This document shows positions 21,727-29,683 of a stretch of 36,853 nucleotides of DNA, piece after piece. Within the stretch, counting starts at the first letter, position 1, and the number at the start of each line of letters is the position of its first letter. This DNA comes from a virus, in the UHGV virus genome UHGV-0090257; one strand, written 5' to 3'. The notes beneath the pieces are model-generated. The model was not told the origin of the DNA. It ran no database searches and worked only from the letters and a program-made list of their open reading frames with translations. A program made the translations under genes and the position numbers.

Positions 21727-22102
21727 TATTGGCCTCCTGCATCAGGAGAAAGACAATCATGGCGGCGCGGAGAGGTCTGGCATCAAATATTGGGCTTACG
21801 CCTTTTGCATCCACACACCATTCAGTTAACTGGTCTAAGATAGAAATCCTGTATTTCTCAATAATCGGCCATGAAGCGCTCGGATCATTGCAGTAGTCAG
21901 GCAAATGATTTAATGGCTCAAAAGTTGTATCAGCATTTCCGTAATACCATTTGTTGGTGTTATTCCCTGATGTTTCCGGTTTACTTGCCCAAAGGCCTTT
22001 AAAAATTATGTCTCCTACCATTCTGTTAATTTCAAAATCACTTAACTGTGAATAATCCATTGTCATTTCCTCGCACGATTTCTTAGCCACCGGATATCCC
22101 AC
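21719..22102 (-). CDS. Hypothetical nin-region protein (NinX/NinE slot)
   Basis: 127 aa ORF between the zinc-ribbon ORF and ninF; the real start may be an internal Met (MTMDYSQ...); no family recognised with certainty. Confidence 0.5.
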
Positions 22103-22205
22103 AGGTGAGCCGTGTAATTGAAGGTTTTTACGTCAGATTCTTTTGGGATTGGCTTGCGTTTATTTCTGGAGCGTTTCGTTGGAAGGTATTTGCAGTTTTC
22201 ACAGA

Positions 22206-22379
22206 TTATGTCGGTGATACTTCGTCGCTGTCTCGCCACACGTCCTCCTTTTCCTGAGGTAGTGGTAACACCCCTGTTGGTGTTCTTTCACACCGGAGAC
22301 ACCATCGATTCCAGTAAGGCTGTCCTGGTCGAAAGCGATCGTCTTCCTTTCGCTCTCCACATCGATAACAGTGCTTCAT
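22206..22379 (-). CDS. ninD: Small zinc-ribbon protein, NinD-like
   Basis: From the internal Met: [34 protein letters not shown]..., 57 aa with two CxxC pairs; NinD assignment rests on size, position and memory. Confidence 0.5.
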
Positions 22380-22966
22380 GCGATCACCATTTTGCATGGT
22401 TTAATCGCCATGCCGGGAGCCAGTTCAAAATCGGAGTCGCACTGATTTCCCCACATATCCCACCCGGTCACTTTGTCGCGGCTAAATAACTCACAGCGCG
22501 GCACGTCGCCAAGCAACTTAGCTAACATGTCTCTTACGATCGGTGGTTTTGCACTGTGCTCCATTCTCGGTGCGGTAAAGTGCTGGCATATTGAAGCGTC
22601 CATTCTCTCAGGCAACCGCCCTCGAACGGCAAACAAGCAATCCTCGCTATTTGCCCGGGTCATATGCCCCATTCCGATCGCACTGTTGCCTTTGTGCTTA
22701 TTGGTTTTGTGCCAAGTAAAGCCTTTCATAGTCATCAACCTGAATCCCCACGCCTCAATTACCTTTAGCGCTTCGGCTGGCTGTGTCGGCACCCACCACA
22801 TCGCTAACAAGCAAGATTCTGGATCCGCTAAATCCCATACTGGCAGTCGGCAAATGTCCTGAACATTCATAACATCGTATTTATGTCCAGCACCGCGATT
22901 GCCATCGTTGGCTTTGTCGCGATATTGCCAAGGTGGATCTGCGTAAATAAGTCGGTATTTGTTCAT
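22376..22966 (-). CDS. DNA N6-adenine methyltransferase, MT-A70-like
   Basis: 196 aa; catalytic DPPW motif in [10 protein letters not shown]; occupies the slot of ninC between ninB and the NinD-like ORF. Confidence 0.75.
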
Positions 22967-23406
22967 GCAGCTTTATCTCCCCATCTCGCTTTCCACTCCA
23001 GAGCCAGTCGCGCTTCGTCTGACCATTTAACGCCACGTTCTGTACCGAATGCCTGTATAAGCTCTAATAACTCCGCAAATTCGCTTACACGCATCCTGCT
23101 GGTTGACTGGCCTATTACCACAAAGCCATTCCCGGCAAGGTTAGGAACAACGTCCTGCTGCTTTAATGCTGCGGTAAACACACACTTCCAGCTTTCTGCA
23201 TCCAGCCAGCGACCATGCCATTCAACCTGACGAGAGACGTCACCAAGGCAAGCCCAAAGCTTTCGGTTTTGGTCTAAGCTGCGGTTGCGTTCCTGAATGG
23301 TTACTACGATTGGTTTGGTTGGGTCTGGAAGAATTTGCTGGATAGCTTGAATGGCGTTCTGCTGATGGATGGGGCTTCTTAGTTCAAACGTTAGTTTCCT
23401 CACCAT
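22963..23406 (-). CDS. ninB: NinB (recombination mediator)
   Basis: 147 aa, ...KLTFELRSPIHQQNAIQAIQQILPDPTKPIVVTIQERNRSLDQNRKLWACLGDVSRQVEWHGRWLD... near-matches lambda NinB as remembered. Confidence 0.9.
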   Translation of the reverse strand: MVRKLTFELRSPIHQQNAIQAIQQILPDPTKPIVVTIQERNRSLDQNRKLWACLGDVSRQVEWHGRWLDAESWKCVFTAALKQQDVVPNLAGNGFVVIGQSTSRMRVSEFAELLELIQAFGTERGVKWSDEARLALEWKARWGDKAA

Positions 23407-23547
23407 TTACGCTCCTGTAATCGTCAAGTGCAGCTGCAATAGTCCCTATCGGGTCATGGTCTTGTCCGATAATCTCATTTACGTTTTCATCTTCTTCCAC
23501 ACCGAAAAAGAATCGCAGGGCTAACATGATTTCTTCGTATGCGCTCA
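23407..23547 (-). CDS. Small hypothetical protein
   Basis: 46 aa ORF read by hand (MSAYEEIMLALRFFFGVEEDENVNEIIGQDHDPIGTIAAALDDYRSV) filling the gap between the 83-aa ORF and ninB; its stop directly abuts the ninB start. Confidence 0.3.
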
Positions 23548-23550
23548 TAC

Positions 23551-23802
23551 TCACTCCTTCACTTTGATTCCAGCGGCGCGGATGGCGTCAGCGCAATAAT
23601 CGATAGCGCAGTTGTGTCCTTTGTCGAAATCATCCTCAGCCATCACTTTGTCATCGAGTTTTATCTCGATAGCTGCGCGAGACTTAACCCATGACTGCCA
23701 GGCAATCATCTTGATGGCCTGAACGTGAAGTTCTTCGCTGCTGTTAATAGACTCGAACTCTTCACCAAACCACTCCAAAAACTGCTTTCTTGATTCGTCC
23801 AT
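23551..23802 (-). CDS. Hypothetical protein (ren-slot cluster)
   Basis: 83 aa acidic ORF in the early-right operon direction. Confidence 0.5.
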   Translation of the reverse strand: MDESRKQFLEWFGEEFESINSSEELHVQAIKMIAWQSWVKSRAAIEIKLDDKVMAEDDFDKGHNCAIDYCADAIRAAGIKVKE

Positions 23803-23813
23803 ATCAATCCCCG

Positions 23814-24014
23814 TTATGACAGGTTAATTTTCACCCAACCCTTCCCACGCACATTTGCAACAAGCCCTTTCTTTCTCAGGTATTGCATACGGCGATCGAT
23901 GGTTTCGATATACATTCCATTGCTCCGCCATTTAAGCCAGATATCAAAAACAGGTGTTGGTCTTTCACTCAGCATTGAAAGAATGTTTTGATCTAATTTT
24001 TCGTACTTGCTCAC
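23814..24014 (-). CDS. Hypothetical protein (ren-slot cluster)
   Basis: 66 aa basic ORF; stop overlaps the upstream gene start region. Confidence 0.5.
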   Translation of the reverse strand: MSKYEKLDQNILSMLSERPTPVFDIWLKWRSNGMYIETIDRRMQYLRKKGLVANVRGKGWVKINLS

Positions 24015-24337
24015 AAATACCCTCTCTCACTTAATCGCGCCCACGCTTCGTTAAACTCTTCTCGGGTTGCGCCGGATTTTCTTTCTTCAAACATCATGCA
24101 TTCGCTGATGTCTCCCCATGACTTTGGTCGCTTTTCAGCGAACAGATCATCCCATTCGAATACCCAGCGGCCTGATTTTCGGTAGTGGTAAATGGTCAGC
24201 CATGTTGTGCTGTTCGCTGGATACCCATAGAGAACTTCGACTTTTTGATCACGGTCTTTATGCTTCTTCAGCAGGATAAAGCCAGCAACCAGCGAAGCTC
24301 CGGCAAGAATGATGATTGGAATTTGCCAGTCAGCCAC
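24011..24337 (-). CDS. Hypothetical membrane-anchored protein (ren-slot cluster)
   Basis: 108 aa; N-terminal hydrophobic segment IPIIILAGASLVAGFILL; GTG start preceded by the SD GGGAGAGGGA. Confidence 0.5.
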   Translation of the reverse strand: MADWQIPIIILAGASLVAGFILLKKHKDRDQKVEVLYGYPANSTTWLTIYHYRKSGRWVFEWDDLFAEKRPKSWGDISECMMFEERKSGATREEFNEAWARLSERGYL

Positions 24338-24352
24338 AATTCCCTCTCCCCC

Positions 24353-24384
24353 AAATAAAAAGGCCTGCGATTACCAGCAGGCCT
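24353..24384 (-). terminator. tR2-like intrinsic terminator within the early-right operon
   Basis: Minus-strand sense GGCCTGC-tggtaatc-GCAGGCC followed by TTTTTATTT, between the HTH gene and the ren-slot genes. Confidence 0.65.
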
Positions 24385-24409
24385 GTTATTAGCTCAGTGA
24401 TGTAGATGG

Positions 24410-24700
24410 TCATTGCCTTACCTCCATAAGCGCCCTATTAATAAACGCCGTCATTGGATTTGCACACCCCCACCCCGTACCATCTGGATTTCTTTTAATT
24501 GGCTCCTTCTTCACTTTGCGTTTTGCATAAATAACCGTCTTCCACTTACGCTCAACAACACTCAAATGTCCTTGTTTCACCATATGCCTTGCTGCTTGAG
24601 CGATTCTGTTATTTGGTATTCCGGTGATCAGTGCTAATTCATGTGGGGAGAATTGTTCATGAGTTTTCAGATATTCCAAGATGATTTCTTTTCCAGTCAC
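24410..24700 (-). CDS. Small helix-turn-helix DNA-binding protein
   Basis: 96 aa; SPHELALITGIPNNRIAQAARHMVKQGHL resembles a winged-helix/HTH recognition region. Confidence 0.5.
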   Translation of the reverse strand: MTGKEIILEYLKTHEQFSPHELALITGIPNNRIAQAARHMVKQGHLSVVERKWKTVIYAKRKVKKEPIKRNPDGTGWGCANPMTAFINRALMEVRQ

Positions 24701-25590
24701 GATCTGCTCCTGTAACTATCCCATGTAAACGCAAGAGTGCACCCGCCGCCATCATTCATCCTGTCAATAACACGCTCACCAATGAATGCCGAAAGTTCAT
24801 CTTTGCTCTGATTACTAATCAGGATTGTTGGCTTCATGTATTCATATCTGGTGTTGATAATTTCGAACATGATTAGCTTTTCAGCATCACTGCCGAACTG
24901 CACGCCAACCTCATCGATTATTAACAAGTCAGGATGCGTAAATTGCCTAATGACTTCTTCTTCAGTTCTGGTTGCAGCCTTAGACCATGTTGATTTGTAC
25001 TCTCTGGCAATTTTCAAAGCAGTGGTAAATATCACAGAGCTTTGATGCTCGATAATGGCGTGCCTAGCGATAGCCAGTGCAAGGTGGTTCTTTCCAGTTC
25101 CAGGCTTACCACACATGACCAGTCCGCCACCTTTCTGAAGGCGTTCAGGCCACTTACTGGCATATGCCTGGCATACCTTAAGAACTCGCTTTGCATCATC
25201 ATTAACAGGCTCATAATTCTGAAGAGTGCAATATTTGAACCTCTCTGGAATATTGAGAGAATTCAACAAGTATTCAATTTTTGATTGTCTTGCTCTTTGT
25301 TCTGCCTGCTCACATTCAATCTCTTTCTTACGAATTTTCTCCTCAAGGCACTGTGGGCACTCAGATTTACTTGAAGTAATTCTTTTTCCTGAGATGGTCA
25401 GATATTTCTCATAGGAAGTATATTTACCGTGTTTCTCGCACTCTTCCACTGTGCTGGTAACTGACATTCCATCTGATGCTGATCCAATTTTGCTAAACTC
25501 AAGTTTCTGTTTAAGATCAGAAATGTCATTGATTTTTGAGTCTACAAGTTGCCTTTGCAGTGCCAGATTGTAACCATTTGTCGTATTCAT
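24697..25590 (-). CDS. DnaC-like replicative helicase loader (AAA+ ATPase) with N-terminal Cys-containing extension
   Basis: Walker A CGKPGTGKNHLA and Walker B LLIIDEVG; probable start at the Met of MNTTNGY overlapping the O stop; N-terminal region has CPQC. Confidence 0.8.
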   Translation of the reverse strand: MNTTNGYNLALQRQLVDSKINDISDLKQKLEFSKIGSASDGMSVTSTVEECEKHGKYTSYEKYLTISGKRITSSKSECPQCLEEKIRKKEIECEQAEQRARQSKIEYLLNSLNIPERFKYCTLQNYEPVNDDAKRVLKVCQAYASKWPERLQKGGGLVMCGKPGTGKNHLALAIARHAIIEHQSSVIFTTALKIAREYKSTWSKAATRTEEEVIRQFTHPDLLIIDEVGVQFGSDAEKLIMFEIINTRYEYMKPTILISNQSKDELSAFIGERVIDRMNDGGGCTLAFTWDSYRSRS

Positions 25591-25592
25591 AT

Positions 25593-26438
25593 TCACTCCT
25601 GCGCCCATGAAGGCATTTCAGTTTGTCCGTAATCTTTGGCGGCAAAGTTTTCCTGCATAGCTCGATGCTGCGGCCTCGGTTGAGATTTCCCCTTTGGAGT
25701 CTTGGGCTCAAAAATCCCCTGCCAACCACTGGCGATGCTCTGGTTTATAATTTCTTCAGGTGTATATCCCTTCTCCAGACTTCTGCTTAGAACGTTGATA
25801 GCCTGAGTGACACTTTGCTTAGACTTGATCGACTTACCTATCTCCTTGCGATAGGTAACCCACGACAACCATGTTTCTGCAGATAACCAATCAGGCAACT
25901 CTGTTTCTAGCGGGTCGAACTTCTGAGAAACTTTTTTGGGGGATATAGGGGGTTTATTAATATTTTCTTTTGTCTTTAAAGAATGTCTTTTGTGTGTCTC
26001 TAACTTCGAGACATTGAGTGTCTCTAATTTGGAGACATTTTTTGTCTCTAACTTCGAGACAAAGTTGCTAACTTGGAGACACTTGCTGAATAGCCACGCA
26101 GATACCTCCCTGTTTACACCGATTTGATTTCCATCCATAAACAGGCAATTCATTGAAATCAGTTCTTTTTTAGCCTTGTTAACATTCTGCCTTGACAGTC
26201 CTGTTAACTGAGCAATTTGCTCATCGGCTATTCGATCTGTTTTCTTATTGAATCCATATGTTTTCCTGACGTAGGCCAGCATAACTTTCAACTGGCGAGC
26301 GGTTAAATCGGCACTTGCGATAGCTTCCAGCAGCTCGTTAGCGAATCTGGTGTAACCATCATCGATATCAGCCACTCTTCGCTCCTGTTCGGCAAAGTTA
26401 CCTCTGCCGAAGTTGAGTATTTTTGCTGTATTTGTCAT
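25593..26438 (-). CDS. O: Replication initiator, lambda O-like, containing the origin
   Basis: 281 aa; N-terminus MTNTAKILNFGRGNFAEQERRVADIDDGYTRF... closely resembles lambda O as remembered; the middle of the gene carries iterons. Confidence 0.85.
   Translation of the reverse strand: MTNTAKILNFGRGNFAEQERRVADIDDGYTRFANELLEAIASADLTARQLKVMLAYVRKTYGFNKKTDRIADEQIAQLTGLSRQNVNKAKKELISMNCLFMDGNQIGVNREVSAWLFSKCLQVSNFVSKLETKNVSKLETLNVSKLETHKRHSLKTKENINKPPISPKKVSQKFDPLETELPDWLSAETWLSWVTYRKEIGKSIKSKQSVTQAINVLSRSLEKGYTPEEIINQSIASGWQGIFEPKTPKGKSQPRPQHRAMQENFAAKDYGQTEMPSWAQE
25995..26081. repeat. Origin iterons (4 copies of an ~19-bp dyad-symmetric repeat) inside the O-like gene
   Basis: TGTCTCTAACTTCGAGACA at 25995 and 26043, TGTCTCTAATTTGGAGACA at 26019, and a degenerate copy at 26063; followed on the O-sense side by an AT-rich tract at 25925..25985. 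Confidence 0.75.
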
Positions 26439-26472
26439 AATGACTCCTGTGGATTGATCCAGTCTTTCTACA

Positions 26473-26751
26473 TCAGGCCTCGAAGAATTCGCCGTTCTTC
26501 GGGGCTTTTTCTTTTGTCAGCATTCTTGCTACTTTCTTAGCCAGTTCCGCCAACTCCTCGTCTTCAACACCCCATTCAAGAACAGCCAGAAGCATTCCCA
26601 TTTTTGGGATGAAGCTGTCTTTCCATCGCGAAATTTGCGATTCATTAATCCCTAACGCGTCGGCAACCTTTCGCTGACCACGTACAGCAATTCGATTCAG
26701 GATGTTGCTTGTAATTGCATTCGCTTTCTTGCGAGTACTTGTAAGTTCCAT
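26473..26751 (-). CDS. cII: CII-like lysogeny establishment activator
   Basis: From the internal Met: ...GINESQISRWKDSFIPKMGMLLAVLEWGV... aligns with the lambda CII core (VDKSQISRWKRDWIPKFSMLLAVLEWGV); SD AAGGAAAT upstream; the longer six-frame ORF overlaps nutR. Confidence 0.85.
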   Translation of the reverse strand: MELTSTRKKANAITSNILNRIAVRGQRKVADALGINESQISRWKDSFIPKMGMLLAVLEWGVEDEELAELAKKVARMLTKEKAPKNGEFFEA

Positions 26752-26783
26752 ATGTAAGTATTTCCTTAACAAATAAGAAGTTA

Positions 26784-26801
26784 TGCGCATCAACTTATGC
26801 G
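26784..26801 (-). terminator. Hairpin between nutR and cII (tR1 position)
   Basis: Perfect GCGCAT-aagttg-ATGCGC stem; the downstream sequence is only partly U-rich. Confidence 0.35.
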
Positions 26802-26807
26802 CGTTGT

Positions 26808-26853
26808 ATTCCCGCATTTCGGCGGGAATGAGGACCATGACTGTTAAAGAGCG
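26808..26853 (-). promoter_or_regulatory. nutR (boxA plus boxB)
   Basis: Minus-strand sense boxA CGCTCTTTAACAG and boxB hairpin TTCCCGC-CGAAAT-GCGGGAA, between cro and cII. Confidence 0.7.
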
Positions 26854-26859
26854 GTGTTA

Positions 26860-27054
26860 CTATTTGTTTTTCTTGTTGCTTGGGAAAGGACGAACTTCCT
26901 CTCCAATCACACTGCCATCAGGCTTTACCGTAACCATGATGTTACGGCCTGCCAGAATGGCCTTGCTGATAGCGCACTGGATTACACCAAAGTCACTGGC
27001 TGCTTTAGCCTGTCCATGGATTTTGGCGTAATCGGCAAGTGTCATTCGAATCAT
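26860..27054 (-). CDS. cro: Cro repressor
   Basis: About 64 aa from the ATG at 27054; ...[35 protein letters not shown]...[16 protein letters not shown] aligns with lambda Cro; SD GGAGA upstream. Confidence 0.85.
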
Positions 27055-27083
27055 ATGCACTCTCCGTTATTAACCATGAACAA

Positions 27084-27154
27084 AGAATACTACAGGTATT
27101 CAAAGCAATCAATACTCAGGGTATTTTTAGTTTAAGTACTTTAGCTATTAGAAT
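27084..27154. promoter_or_regulatory. Right operator region with divergent pR and pRM
   Basis: Operator-like dyads AATACTACAGGTATT (27086..27100), AATACTCAGGGTATT (27111..27125) and weaker AGTACTTTAGCTATT (27135..27149); pR -10 TATTCT and -35 TTGATT on the minus strand; candidate pRM -10 TAGAAT at 27149..27154 about 7 nt before the cI ATG. Confidence 0.6.
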
Positions 27155-27160
27155 TAAGCT

Positions 27161-27877
27161 ATGGAAAATAAAAAATCACTGACGACAGAACAGCTCGAAG
27201 ACGCTAAGCGGCTTAAGGCTTTGTATGAGTCAAAAAAGAAAGAATTGGGAATAACCCAATACTCAATCGCTGATGAACTGGGTATCACCCAAGGAGCGGT
27301 AGGGCATTATCTTAATGGCAGAAACGCGCTAAACGTTGAGGTTGCATCTGGTTTTGCACGACTGTTGCAAGTCTCAATTGCTGATTTTAGCCAGTCAATT
27401 GCTGCCAAGGTTGCAGAACAGGCAGAAAGCCTTAAGAGCGATGCCAACGTAAGGTATGCAGGGGAATACAGAGCAGGAAAGAGGTATCCGGTGTTAAGCA
27501 GTATCCAGGCTGGCTCGTGGTGTGAAGCATGCGAACCATACACCATTAAAGACATAGATGTTTGGCTTGAGTCTGACGCGCATATTCAAGGTAATGCGTT
27601 CTGGCTTAAAGTGGAAGGTGATTCAATGACGGCACCGGTTGGGTTAAGCATTCCAGAGGGAACATTCGTTCTTTTCGATACCGGAAGGGAGGCGATCAAC
27701 GGCAGCTTGGTCATAGCAAAACTTTCTGACTCTAACGAAGCAACATTCAAGAAGCTGATAATCGACGGCGGAAATAAATACCTCAAGGGACTTAATCCTG
27801 CATGGCCTCTCGTGCCAATCAATGGAAACTGCAAGATTATAGGCGTTGCAATTGAGACAAAACTAAGGCTGGTTTGA
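27161..27877 (+). CDS. cI: CI-type prophage repressor (HTH plus S24 LexA-like autopeptidase domain)
   Basis: 238 aa; N-terminal HTH (ITQYSIADELGITQGAVGHYLNG), A-G cleavage site in QAGSW, catalytic Ser in GDSM and Lys in FKKL. Confidence 0.9.
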   Translation: MENKKSLTTEQLEDAKRLKALYESKKKELGITQYSIADELGITQGAVGHYLNGRNALNVEVASGFARLLQVSIADFSQSIAAKVAEQAESLKSDANVRYAGEYRAGKRYPVLSSIQAGSWCEACEPYTIKDIDVWLESDAHIQGNAFWLKVEGDSMTAPVGLSIPEGTFVLFDTGREAINGSLVIAKLSDSNEATFKKLIIDGGNKYLKGLNPAWPLVPINGNCKIIGVAIETKLRLV

Positions 27878-27894
27878 TCACGCAAGGGGCGATT

Positions 27895-28263
27895 ATGGTT
27901 GGAACAGCTATAGCAAGCTTTTTTGGGATGTTGGCAATCTCGACAATTTACGGCTTAGCGCATGCTTTTATTGCGAAATCTCTATCAGAAAAAATAAGCC
28001 AGGCTTGGGCGCATAGATTAGCTCGTTTCATGATTCTAGTGATCATAGCAATACAAGGGATATCTGCATTTATCCTCTATGGTTCAAGCTTATACCTGTT
28101 GTATCAAGGCGCGACATTTACGCCTTACACCAGTGATTACGGAACGCTATACGATGGTAGTGAAGACATCTCTATGGCTTGGATCGTCTTTGGTTTATCT
28201 ATGGCCGTGTCTGTTGTAGCAGACATCATTAAGGTAATTCTCGTCTTAACCTTCGCTGACTAA
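27895..28263 (+). CDS. Small polytopic membrane protein co-oriented with cI (lysogenic accessory gene in the rex slot)
   Basis: About 122 aa from the ATG at 27895 (SD AAGGGG); at least three hydrophobic helices; starts 18 nt after the cI stop and ends before OL. Confidence 0.6.
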   Translation: MVGTAIASFFGMLAISTIYGLAHAFIAKSLSEKISQAWAHRLARFMILVIIAIQGISAFILYGSSLYLLYQGATFTPYTSDYGTLYDGSEDISMAWIVFGLSMAVSVVADIIKVILVLTFAD

Positions 28264-28350
28264 ACCATAATCCCGGCAGCAATAGCTATCGGGATCCACT
28301 TCACATATCCCGCATAAAAAACACTGAACAAGCAGACACCGAAAAAAATA

Positions 28351-28437
28351 AATATCCTTTGTATTCATTTGCTTATCATTATTTCACCAAAAATAAATAC
28401 CTTGGGTATTTACACAATAAAATACCTACAGTATTCT
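28351..28437. promoter_or_regulatory. Left operator region with pL
   Basis: Dyads AATATCCTTTGTATT (28351..28365), AATACCTTGGGTATT (28396..28410) and AATACCTACAGTATT (28421..28435), the same family as OR; pL -35 TTTACA (28409..28414) and -10 TATTCT (28432..28437) pointing toward N. Confidence 0.6.
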
Positions 28438-28482
28438 TTAGCCATCAGCAGGACGCTGGAAGCCAAACGGAACAGATTGGCA

Positions 28483-28524
28483 GGCTCTTTAACATTGATG
28501 GGATTGTCCCGCCGAAATGCGGGA
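28483..28524 (+). promoter_or_regulatory. nutL (boxA plus boxB)
   Basis: boxA GGCTCTTTAACA followed 12 nt later by hairpin TCCCGC-CGAAAT-GCGGGA, the same boxB core as nutR. Confidence 0.7.
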
Positions 28525-28838
28525 ACCAAAGAGTAGTTGGCTTTGGGGTGACGTGAAGTGCAGCTGCACGACGGCAACCGGAAGATAAGCACCCGGCGCG
28601 TCACCGCCAAAGTCAATTCCATAGGCGTTATGCAGCCGCCACCATATTCAAGAAAGCTGCACAAGAGGTAGGAGGATTTATGTGAATACTTACATTCAAT
28701 TGAGAGATTAATTAAATAGAACTGATCGAGCAGAGTCCATGAAGGCTCATAAATGCTCTTCCATCCCCGTCTAATTGGCGGGGAAGGAAACCACTTTGTA
28801 ATAAAAAAAATTCCAAAGTTGTTTCATCGGAGGTCAAC

Positions 28839-29138
28839 ATGACAGTAGTCATTACATATCTGGCTGACGATAACGCCAGAAATCGCCGCAGAGCACGCAG
28901 ACAGGCTCAACGTGAACAGGCAATGCAAGAGCAGCGACTGGCGCGAAAAATTGCGCTAAAGCTCTCTGGTTGCGTCAGAGCAGATAAAGCAGCATCACTC
29001 GGAAGCCTTCGCAGCAAGAAGGCAGAAGAAGTCGAGCGTAAACAGAACCGTATTTACTACCGCAAGCCCCGCAGTGAAATGGGTGTGACATGTGTTGGTC
29101 GCCAGAAAATGAAATTAGGCAGCAAACCACTTATTTGA
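28839..29138 (+). CDS. N: N-type transcription antiterminator
   Basis: 99 aa; N-terminal arginine-rich motif NARNRRRARRQAQREQA; first gene downstream of pL/nutL; SD GGAGGT. Confidence 0.8.
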   Translation: MTVVITYLADDNARNRRRARRQAQREQAMQEQRLARKIALKLSGCVRADKAASLGSLRSKKAEEVERKQNRIYYRKPRSEMGVTCVGRQKMKLGSKPLI

Positions 29139-29146
29139 GGTGATAT

Positions 29147-29338
29147 ATGGAACGTAAATTTGAAATTTGGTTGGATTCCGGCGCAAACATTCATTCTTGC
29201 AAAAAGACAGTTGTAACACTCGGTGATCTTGGCTTATCCGAGAATGAGTGGGATGAAATGGATCGGGACGAAAAAGACGAAAACATGCGTGATGTAGCAT
29301 TTGAAACGCTTGATTGGGGATGGAAGGAAATTAAGTGA
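29147..29338 (+). CDS. Hypothetical protein (N-proximal accessory ORF)
   Basis: 63 aa acidic ORF in an AT-rich segment immediately after N. Confidence 0.5.
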   Translation: MERKFEIWLDSGANIHSCKKTVVTLGDLGLSENEWDEMDRDEKDENMRDVAFETLDWGWKEIK

Positions 29339-29386
29339 TGGCCGCATAGTCGGCCTTTATTTTTGGCATAAACAACAGAGGCCAAC

Positions 29387-29683
29387 ATGGAATTTAAAGG
29401 TACTGAAGGTAAGTGGGAAATAATGATGGATGGCGATGAGATTAAAATCATCCAGGCAGACTCACTTGAAAATGGCGCAGGCTGGCGTTCGTATATTGCA
29501 ATCTGTGAGGAAGTTCAATGCATTGAAGATGCCAATCTAATAGCGGCAGCACCTGACCTTCTCGAAGCACTTCAGTTATTACTTAAGCAAACCAAAAATA
29601 GAACAACGACAACATATCCAGAATGGTATGGAGCTGTTAATAAAGGTCTTGTGGCAATCAGAAAAGCTCTTGGGGAAGAATGA
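29387..29683 (+). CDS. Hypothetical protein (N-proximal accessory ORF)
   Basis: 98 aa ORF, AT-rich codon usage, no family recognised. Confidence 0.5.
   Translation: MEFKGTEGKWEIMMDGDEIKIIQADSLENGAGWRSYIAICEEVQCIEDANLIAAAPDLLEALQLLLKQTKNRTTTTYPEWYGAVNKGLVAIRKALGEE

Follow-up and report, generated by a model that had tools for sequence, protein, structure and literature searches.

In the viral genome UHGV-0090257 (36,853 nt, called the window here), a cluster of small genes at 23407-24700 raises the question of what these genes are and what they might do for the phage. The initial annotation listed an HTH protein, a terminator, a membrane-anchored 108-aa protein and small ORFs in this interval, and we found that all of these are present, on the minus strand; nothing that we found contradicts this architecture. 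On the same strand, the cluster is preceded by the gene for a DnaC-like helicase loader (24697-25608; Pfam IstB_IS21, E 3.9e-18; PHROG 50 DnaC-like, E 1.1e-84), and its slot is bounded downstream by ninB, which encodes the Orf recombination mediator (22963-23406, minus strand; Pfam NinB, E 2.4e-54). The flanking genes are those for cro, cII, O, the DnaC-like protein, NinB, MT-A70, NinE, NinX, NinF, NinG, NinH, a phosphatase and Q, and the structural genes are 96-97% identical to those of Sf6 and HK620. The interval is very probably the promoter-proximal end of the nin region in a P22-like (Sf6/HK620-type) lambdoid phage, and in all likelihood this phage carries a lambda-style immunity, replication and ren module. 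The base composition of the cluster is like that of its flanks, and an Rfam scan of 22000-29500 gave no match.

We found that the HTH protein (24410-24700, minus strand) is itself a homologue of lambda Ren. Both proteins have 96 aa, and residues 1-58 align without gaps at 43% identity (E 3e-15), with only scattered identities in the C-terminal 38 residues. Profile searches matched it to PHROG 142 (Ren-like, E 3.5e-13) and to PHROG 1687 (MarR-like, E 6e-40); the protein is basic (pI 10.1), its N-terminal domain is winged-helix/MarR-like, and a PDB search with it found no relative. The start of the gene overlaps the stop of the DnaC-like gene (GTGA) and its stop overlaps the ninA start (ATGA), and its position after the helicase loader and before ninA/tR2 matches the lambda layout. 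Because the HTH protein is the Ren homologue, the small genes occupy the slot between ninA/tR2 and ninB, and the initial annotation was wrong to place them in the ren slot.

The terminator at 24351-24384 (minus strand) was identified by a terminator scan, by RNA folding and by its identity to lambda. The scan placed an 8-bp stem with six GC pairs and an 8-nt loop at 24384-24361 on the minus strand, followed by TTTTTATTT; the stem-loop reads AGGCCTGC-TGGTAATC-GCAGGCCT and then TTTTTATTTGG, and the hairpin was recovered in both the MFE and the centroid folds. The ninA/tR2 block is identical to lambda at 73 of 74 nt, and the same sequence carries the tR2 annotation in Sf6. Its earlier description as tR2-like was therefore right about the terminator and too weak about its identity, which is that of lambda tR2. 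The termination efficiency of lambda tR2 in vivo is about 0.9 (PMC4824070).

Spanning this terminator is ninA (24330-24413, minus strand), a hydrophobic 27-aa ORF (MTIYITELITGLLVIAGLFIWGRGNCG) that was missing from the initial annotation and whose stop lies 5 nt inside the 108-aa gene (GTGGCTGA). The Sf6 counterpart is annotated as gene 45, as 'phage 21 NinA-like' and with the 'boundary sequence bsq6', and the NinA start site has been reported to be active (PMC4824070). Since the NinA sequence is under purifying selection, in 35 of the 49 loci surveyed the product of the gene after ninA is a small membrane protein, and some database entries show an in-frame fusion of NinA with the 108-aa protein, NinA may be a functional membrane peptide that works with the 108-aa protein and similar small membrane proteins.

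The interval from ninA/tR2 to ninB, which is empty in lambda, holds four genes. We found that each of them, all on the minus strand, has a full-length profile match to a PHROG family without assigned function: a 108-aa protein equivalent to Sf6 gp46 (24011-24337; PHROG 5903, E 1.1e-75), a 66-aa basic protein equivalent to Sf6 gp47 (23814-24014; PHROG 7185, E 1.2e-34), an 83-aa acidic protein of the phiTE_015/PF26207 family (23551-23802; PHROG 343, E 1.4e-25; the PF26207 assignment was precomputed on close homologues) and a very acidic protein of 54-56 aa (23384-23554; PHROG 1603, E 1.7e-32). The three ORFs of 46-83 aa that had been listed behind the 108-aa gene do exist, but the length of 46 aa comes from a later Met. 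Compared with their homologues, the four ORFs have dN/dS values of 0-0.55 (0.25 for the 54-56-aa gene), and their junctions consist of GTGA/ATGA overlaps or Shine-Dalgarno sequences. Because dN/dS is below 1, the start sites have Shine-Dalgarno sequences or overlapping codons, and homologues occur in temperate and virulent phages, the sequences indicate that all four are real genes. The opposite reading, that they are spurious ORFs or functionless decaying remnants, could appeal to their shortness and to their annotation only as 'hypothetical protein'. It is nevertheless scarcely credible and already largely refuted by the dN/dS values, by the strong PHROG matches, by confident AF2 models for two of the proteins (pLDDT 86 and 91) and by conservation across temperate, virulent and jumbo phages.

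The AF2 model of the 108-aa protein, which is 99% identical to Sf6 gp46, shows an N-terminal transmembrane helix at residues 5-27. A conserved domain of about 75 aa, with the motifs YGYP, TWLTIYH.R, FEWDDLF and RPKSWGD, follows this anchor and would be cytoplasmic. An exhaustive profile search of the family returned 36 clusters, all of them small stand-alone proteins; two long matches to the family profile proved to be spurious repeat matches and offer no domain-fusion clue. The 66-aa protein is basic (pI 10.2) and 98.5% identical to Sf6 gp47; a GTGA overlap joins its start codon to the stop codon of the 108-aa gene. This protein may bind DNA through a winged helix: its HTH matches are all sub-threshold (HTH_Crp_2, E 0.067; IscR, E 0.016-0.3), a single-sequence PDB search gave only weak IscR/ETS-type matches, and its family profile found nothing significant in the PDB. 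We rejected the idea that it is a second Ren-like paralogue, as it has no similarity to the Ren homologue.

The two remaining proteins are acidic. The 83-aa protein (pI 4.8, net charge -7) is a diverged allele of Sf6 gp48, with 42% identity, and belongs to a family whose ends are conserved and whose centre is hypervariable. The 54-56-aa protein (pI 4.05, net charge -11) has no cysteines and is 82-89% identical to the products of BTP1-group genes and 57-61% identical to those of Klebsiella jumbo-phage genes. Its true length is more likely 54 aa, starting at the ATG at 23548, which stands behind AAGGAG; the PHROG 1603 profile begins at residue 3. The last 23 nt of this ORF overlap ninB.

The initial annotation had proposed homology and structure searches. 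These yielded the four PHROG families and the Sf6 relatives, but no search gave a function. Pfam, NCBIfam and PADLOC scans of the four proteins returned nothing above threshold, known anti-defence and defence families included; single-sequence PDB searches with the 108-, 83- and 56-aa proteins gave no match, and fold searches gave no significant fold match. A Foldseek search against BFVD found only the query's own uncharacterised family, in Goslar and IME207, and a literature search on phiTE_015, PF26207, DUF4752 and DUF7301 found no papers. The gene neighbourhoods of distant homologues were uninformative on function, as on large conjugative plasmids, where homologues of the 66-aa protein lie within runs of hypothetical genes.

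Expression of the cassette can be judged from the regulatory signals around it. An N-like antiterminator gene is present at 28839-29138 on the plus strand (PHROG 271 'anti-termination protein N-like', E 2.3e-36); its product has the arginine-rich motif NARNRRRARRQAQRE and matches Pfam N_peptide at E 0.0017, below the curated cut-off. Upstream of this gene lies nutL (28483-28525, plus strand), with one mismatch in boxA and one in boxB. The nutR site (26809-26853, minus strand) lies between cro and cII and consists of boxA CGCTCTTTAACA at 26853-26842 and boxB at 26828-26809, which forms the hairpin TTCCCGC-CGAAAT-GCGGGAA; the boxB motif occurs twice in the window and not once in 100 shuffles. 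A sigma-70 consensus scan of the minus strand at 23400-24700, which weak or non-sigma-70 promoters could escape, returned no promoter-like site. After tR2, the terminator scan found none between the cassette and ninB and only a weak 5-bp terminator-like match, inside the 108-aa gene. Because the N-like gene, nutL, nutR and tR2 are present and there is no internal promoter-like site, N-dependence of the cassette is a sound deduction. By analogy with lambda, in which every gene past cro is N-dependent (PMC10695390), it is plausible that tR2 stops unmodified polymerase here and is passed by N-modified polymerase, and that the cassette is expressed only in the N-antiterminated delayed-early pR transcript. 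The further step from a position behind the terminator to counter-defence is not borne out: NinB, NinE/F/G/H, the phosphatase and Q all lie behind the same tR2, and because all nin genes and Q share this position, it is no pointer to such a role.

To place the cassette among related phages, we surveyed 120 IMG/VR loci that share the tR2 core. Among them, ren was found upstream in 48 loci, 46 of which had a recognised P or DnaC-type loader, and it was absent from all 45 loci with a DnaB-type helicase. In the 112 loci where ninB was found downstream, ninB followed tR2 directly in 61, and the other 51 carried an insert of 0.2-1.3 kb. Cargo was scored in 50 of the insert loci. The commonest cargo was the 83-aa family, present in 36 and situated immediately upstream of ninB in 20 of those 36; a 68-aa protein with two transmembrane segments was the first gene in 24 of the 50. 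The 108-aa gene was found in 11 and the 66-aa gene in 7, in each of which it followed the 108-aa gene; it never occurred without it. Other recurrent families of the slot are DUF7301 and DUF4752. These families recur in varied combinations between the same two joints, the ninA stop and the first ~20 nt of ninB.

Lar is the one cargo family with a known function among those scanned; all others are DUFs or unknown PHROGs. In E. coli 2017.15.02CC, the Lar gene (Pfam PF14354, 44.9 bits; cut-off 28.6) stands fourth in the slot, flanked by an 83-aa-family gene and ninB. We also found the identical four-gene order of our cassette in other contigs. In phage records and complete E. coli genomes, none covers at least 80% of the arrangement, yet its uniqueness has to be rejected, since IMG/VR contigs do cover at least 80% of it and one of them (L162) is 100% identical over 1901 nt.

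The closest known counterparts are in lambda and Sf6. The lambda order ren, ninA/tR2, ninB is reported to form the start of the ninR region (Kroger & Hobom 1982; Cheng, Court & Friedman 1995). As in lambda, the 96-aa Ren (here its homologue) follows the helicase loader with overlapping stop and start codons, ninB lies downstream, the genes form a chain linked by ATGA or GTGA, and the N/nut antitermination logic is the same. Unlike in lambda, where ninB comes directly after ninA with an ATGA overlap, 1.0 kb and four genes intervene here; furthermore, the C-terminal 38 residues of Ren have diverged, the loader is DnaC-like instead of P, and the NinC slot holds an MT-A70 methyltransferase. Sf6 genes 45-50 (AF547987 / NC_005344) present ninA with tR2 and bsq6, gp46, gp47, a gp48-family gene, a small gene and ninB, and its virion genes are 96.5% identical to those in the window. 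However, upstream of these genes Sf6 encodes a DnaB-type helicase and lacks ren, and the product of its fourth gene, gp49 (FlbD-like), has no relation to the acidic 54-aa protein beyond the shared C-terminal EETNV, which overlaps ninB.

We are thus highly confident that the locus comprises a Ren homologue, ninA-tR2 and a four-gene accessory cassette of the nin region that would be N-dependent, dispensable and exchangeable. The cassette would be made only within the pR delayed-early transcript, once N-modified RNA polymerase passes tR2, and translation would be handed along a chain of overlapping or close stop and start codons. The cassette would be dispensable cargo, as lambda lacks one and so do about half of the phages that share this tR2; deletions of the nin region are viable in lambda and P22. 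It would be exchanged by recombination at the conserved joints. Our best guess is that each of these small proteins acts by itself in lytic growth, binding or modulating functions of the host or of competitors: the 108-aa protein might present a cytoplasmic domain tethered to the inner membrane, the 66-aa protein might accompany it as a small basic protein that binds nucleic acid, and the 83- and 54-aa proteins might be acidic protein-binding inhibitors.

Whether these functions amount to counter-defence in the strict sense is a separate matter, and we consider that role possible but somewhat unlikely. The corresponding explanation, which we hold only tentatively, is that one or more of the four proteins inhibits an anti-phage system of the host or of a prophage, candidates being a membrane-associated abortive-infection system for the 108-aa protein and, for the two acidic proteins of 54 and 83 aa, a nuclease or restriction system. 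The Lar restriction-alleviation gene at the fourth position of the same slot argues for it, as do the fast turnover of the slot, the conserved ends and hypervariable centre of the 83-aa family, the net charges of the two acidic proteins, and the homologues of the 108-, 66- and 54-aa proteins in virulent and jumbo phages, which imply action in lytic growth. However, Pfam, NCBIfam and PADLOC linked none of the four proteins to an established anti-defence or defence family, the fold searches gave no match, the recombination, methylase, phosphatase and Q genes lie equally behind tR2, Lar is the sole scanned cargo with a known function, and acidity and small size are non-specific. Lar itself, known from restriction alleviation by the Rac prophage, is similarly small, but it has no sequence relation to the four proteins, and it is a zinc-ribbon protein whereas the 54-aa protein lacks cysteines.

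A role in phage DNA metabolism, by anchoring or regulating the replisome or by helping NinB/Orf, appears quite unlikely to us. The slot does lie between the replication genes and ninB, with the 83-aa family so often next to ninB; a homologue of the 108-aa protein directly follows a family-A DNA polymerase gene in a virulent phage contig and another follows a lambda-P-like loader in a different prophage, and in virulent siphoviruses homologues of the 66-aa protein have ParB-like or 'DNA binding protein' genes as neighbours. However, being neighbours says little where early operons are so densely packed, the proteins show no nucleic-acid-enzyme motifs or domain matches, and replication and recombination proceed without these genes in lambda and in half of the related phages. 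Lambdoid morons, reportedly described by Juhala et al. in 2000, are said to be autonomous promoter-gene-terminator insertions. The cassette resembles them in being a set of extra, dispensable genes at a mosaic joint with conserved genes on either side, the slot is a hot spot for insertions, and the 108-aa protein is membrane-anchored like many exclusion proteins. Nevertheless, it is highly improbable that the lysogen expresses these genes from a promoter of their own for lysogenic conversion or superinfection exclusion, as the cassette has no promoter-like site or flanking terminator of its own, is translationally chained into the pR operon, lies downstream of a ~90% terminator in a repressed operon and has homologues in virulent phages.

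In its makeup, then, the locus is ordinary mosaic nin-region cargo of an already known kind: its ORFs were sequenced and catalogued years ago, and four small swap-in genes have been seen before in Sf6 and in many prophages. We consider it rather unlikely that any of the proteins represents a novel type of effector for counter-defence or host takeover; the best candidates may be the 54-aa protein of net charge -11, which takes exactly the position that Lar has in another prophage, and the membrane-tethered 108-aa protein together with the 66-aa protein as its obligate partner. Together, these results mark the tR2-ninB slot as a hot spot, easy to recognise by the nearly invariant sequence of ~70 nt that anchors it, where small delayed-early genes gather; one of these (Lar) encodes a known anti-restriction factor. 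Screening its recurrent cargo families, with the 83-aa PF26207 family, the 68-aa two-TM protein, the 108/66-aa pair, DUF7301, DUF4752 and the acidic 54-aa protein as a shortlist, could give functions to proteins in thousands of enterobacterial prophages.

All coding sequences at 23407-24700 are on the minus strand. A DnaC-like helicase loader (24697-25608; Pfam IstB, E 3.9e-18; PHROG 50) is followed by a basic 96-aa HTH protein (24410-24700) and an intrinsic terminator (stem 24384-24361, then TTTTTATTT). Next come four small genes, here called the cassette, encoding a 108-aa protein (24011-24337), a 66-aa protein (23814-24014), an 83-aa protein (23551-23802) and a 56-aa ORF (23384-23554), and then ninB (22963-23406; Pfam NinB, E 2.4e-54), all likewise on the minus strand. 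The initial annotation had this inventory right apart from the strand and the smallest ORF, given as 46 aa, for which the likelier start is the ATG at 23548 behind AAGGAG, yielding 54 aa. Upstream lie Cro, CII, an O-like initiator and the loader, as in a lambdoid early-right operon; downstream lie NinB, an MT-A70 methyltransferase, NinE, NinX, NinF, NinG, NinH, a Ser/Thr phosphatase and Q. In the first 20 kb, the virion genes share 96-97% identity with Sf6, HK620 and related P22-like podoviruses. The MT-A70 DNA methyltransferase (22376-22966, minus strand; Pfam E 4.8e-25; PHROG 359) occupies the place of lambda ninC, overlaps ninB by ATGA and could plausibly serve self-protection or anti-restriction within the same operon as the cassette. 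Within the O-like gene, three tandem 24-bp iterons (25990-26061, consensus TTGTGTGTCTCTAACTTCGAGACA) encode a repeated NVSKLET motif and are likely to be the replication origin; they also produced a false terminator-like match at 26016-26040.

We found that the HTH protein is itself, by homology, Ren. Like lambda Ren it has 96 residues, and the two align ungapped with 43% identity over residues 1-58 (E 3e-15); its profile matches are PHROG 142 (Ren-like) and PHROG 1687 (MarR-like). Its start overlaps the loader stop (GTGA) and its stop overlaps the next ORF start (ATGA), the same place as lambda ren. Thus the ren slot is already filled, and the cassette, which had been assigned to it, was mislabelled and lies in a different slot. 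Among the matches listed in our database survey (L007-L126), a Ren homologue lies 5' of tR2 in 48 loci, with a helicase loader recognised beside it in 46 of these (lambda P in 42, DnaC-like in 4), and is absent from all 45 loci with a DnaB-type helicase replication module. From this distribution, Ren seems to travel with the loader and not with the nin genes.

The terminator, described before as strong and tR2-like, is by near-identity lambda tR2 lying inside ninA: the block from ATGACC to GGGAA is identical to lambda at 73 of 74 nt and nearly identical to Sf6, where the same block is annotated as gene 45 (NinA-like), terminator tR2 and 'boundary sequence bsq6'. The initial annotation had overlooked ninA, a 27-aa hydrophobic ORF (24413-24330, minus strand) that spans tR2 and encodes a TM-like peptide. 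For lambda tR2, published work puts the maximal in-vivo termination efficiency at ~0.9, calls the start site of NinA 'not weak' and finds that NinA translation reduces termination by only ~10% (PMC4824070); given the near-identity, the label 'strong' appears justified. The ninA ORF also looks protein-constrained. In the survey of L007-L126, the 26 nt (first eight codons) 5' of the fixed search core occurred as 14 DNA variants in 121 sequences among the matches listed, and 12 of the 14 encode an identical MTIYITEL through synonymous swaps (ACC/ACT, ATC/ATT/ATA, CTA/CTT/CTG/TTA/TTG); the only peptide-changing substitutions among these matches were I5V, T6S and I9V. In all scorable loci listed, the stop of the upstream gene, whatever that gene is, is fused to the ninA ATG, and among the same matches the ninA stop usually overlaps the start of the next gene. 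Three 133-aa database proteins (P0003, P0005 and P0008) are in-frame fusions of NinA with the 108-aa protein.

A search of IMG/VR with the exact 37-nt tR2 core returned at least 120 loci, in which ninA/tR2 is preceded by at least five different genes, among them lambda ren, a ren of the type in this phage and two helicases of the DnaB type. Among the 112 listed loci with ninB 3', 61 have it directly after ninA, as in lambda, and 51 carry an insert of 0.2-1.3 kb. In the 50 scored insert loci among the matches listed, the 83-aa family was present in 36 (abutting ninB in 20), a 68-aa two-TM protein (PHROG 1165) led the insert in 24, and the 108-aa gene occurred in 11; the 66-aa gene, found in 7, was always directly 3' of the 108-aa gene. 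Further cargo includes DUF7301, DUF4752 and FlbD-like proteins, and the only cargo of known function among these matches is Lar, Pfam-confirmed and occupying the fourth place in one E. coli prophage. In 35 of 49 listed insert loci, the gene next to ninA/tR2 codes for a predicted small membrane protein (the 68-aa protein in 24, the 108-aa protein in 9). The EETNV tail of the 54-aa protein, encoded by the 23 nt overlapping ninB (23384-23406, minus strand), also ends unrelated ninB-upstream genes elsewhere (Sf6 gp49-like, PHROG 29435), which places the downstream recombination joint inside the ninB 5' end. Coverage of at least 80% of the interval was found in no phage record and no complete E. 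coli genome; several IMG/VR contigs have the same four-gene order, and one 36,238-bp metagenome contig (L162, IMGVR_UViG_3300029619_000266), 100% identical over the 1901 nt of 22900-24800, is probably the same phage. The tR2-ninB interval is a known mosaic hot spot.

An N-type antitermination system is present in full, the phage having an arginine-rich N-like protein (28839-29138; PHROG 271, E 2.3e-36), nutR between cro and cII (boxA CGCTCTTTAACA, boxB TTCCCGCCGAAATGCGGGAA), and nutL upstream of N, whose boxA and boxB each differ from the nutR copy by one mismatch. The gene junctions are, in order, GTGA, ATGA, GTGGCTGA, GTGA, a spacer of 11 nt containing GGGGA, one of 2 nt behind AAGGAG and the 23-nt overlap with ninB. 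By analogy with lambda, transcription of the cassette would start at pR alone, once the phage has infected or been induced, and would need N-modified polymerase to pass tR2, and translation would be handed along the gene chain. This supports the N-dependent expression proposed before, but it does not single out the cassette, since every nin gene and Q share it (PMC10695390). Directly 3' of cI, and on its strand, lies a gene for a 129-aa multi-TM protein (27874-28263, plus strand; PHROG 6534); lambda has rexA/rexB in this position, which makes it a candidate for an exclusion or defence gene expressed by the prophage.

The cassette proteins each match one functionally unannotated PHROG family (5903, 7185, 343 and 1603; E 1e-75 to 1e-25), and dN/dS against homologues is 0-0.27 for the 108-aa, 0 for the 66-aa, 0.04-0.55 for the 83-aa and 0.25 for the 54-aa gene. 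The 108-aa protein is Sf6 gp46 (99% identity), in which an acidic N-terminus precedes a TM helix followed by KKHKDRDQK, a layout that suggests N-out/C-in topology and a domain in the cytoplasm. This putative domain has invariant Y37 G38 Y39 P40 T48 Y50 H51 R53 E61 W62 L65 F66 R70, and the AF2 model (pLDDT 86) has the TM helix, four strands and one helix. A search of 1.84 billion representatives yielded 36 clusters, a small family in which no domain fusion was informative. The 66-aa protein is Sf6 gp47 (98.5% identity) and basic (pI 10.2), with winged-helix hints that are all sub-threshold. Its distant full-length homologues (33-37% identity) occur on 537 large, mostly conjugative Klebsiella/Citrobacter plasmids, in runs of small hypothetical genes (for example L134, NC_023911.1, 13114-13323). 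The 83-aa protein (pI 4.8, net charge -7) is 99% identical to a RefSeq 'phiTE_015 family protein', and its homologues have a precomputed Pfam assignment, PF26207; Sf6 gp48 is an allele, 42% identical. Its model (pLDDT 91) has three helices and two short strands and gave only generic matches in a fold search. The family alignment (A3) is mosaic inside the gene, with a near-invariant start (MDESRKQFE.W), centre (W..W.ASRAAIEI) and end (AIRAAGIKVKE), between which segments are exchanged among unrelated variants. The 54-aa protein (pI 4.05, net charge -11) has relatives in BTP1-group Salmonella phages and Klebsiella jumbo phages.

On the PHROG matches and dN/dS, the four ORFs are real genes, as first annotated; with dN/dS below 1 for all of them, we regard spurious ORFs as a negligible prospect. 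A prophage-expressed moron is very improbable, because a sequence scan found no promoter-like site on the coding strand within the cassette and the genes are chained by overlaps and close junctions. The homology and structure searches suggested earlier found families, but neither sequence nor fold assigned a function. A role in counter-defence or host takeover, as first proposed, is tentative and less likely than not: Lar in the same slot, homologues of cassette proteins in virulent phages, the acidity of two of the proteins and the 83-aa family's hypervariable centre are circumstantial pointers to it. An accessory role in replication or recombination, suggested by gene neighbourhoods, is rather unlikely.

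Collectively, these data indicated that the initial observation is real and its interpretation half right. The whole arrangement is an ordinary one: the nin region begins in the standard mosaic fashion described in lambda, P22, L, epsilon34 and Sf6, with ORFs that had already been catalogued. What value remains lies in a defined hot spot from which to screen a handful of recurrent small proteins.
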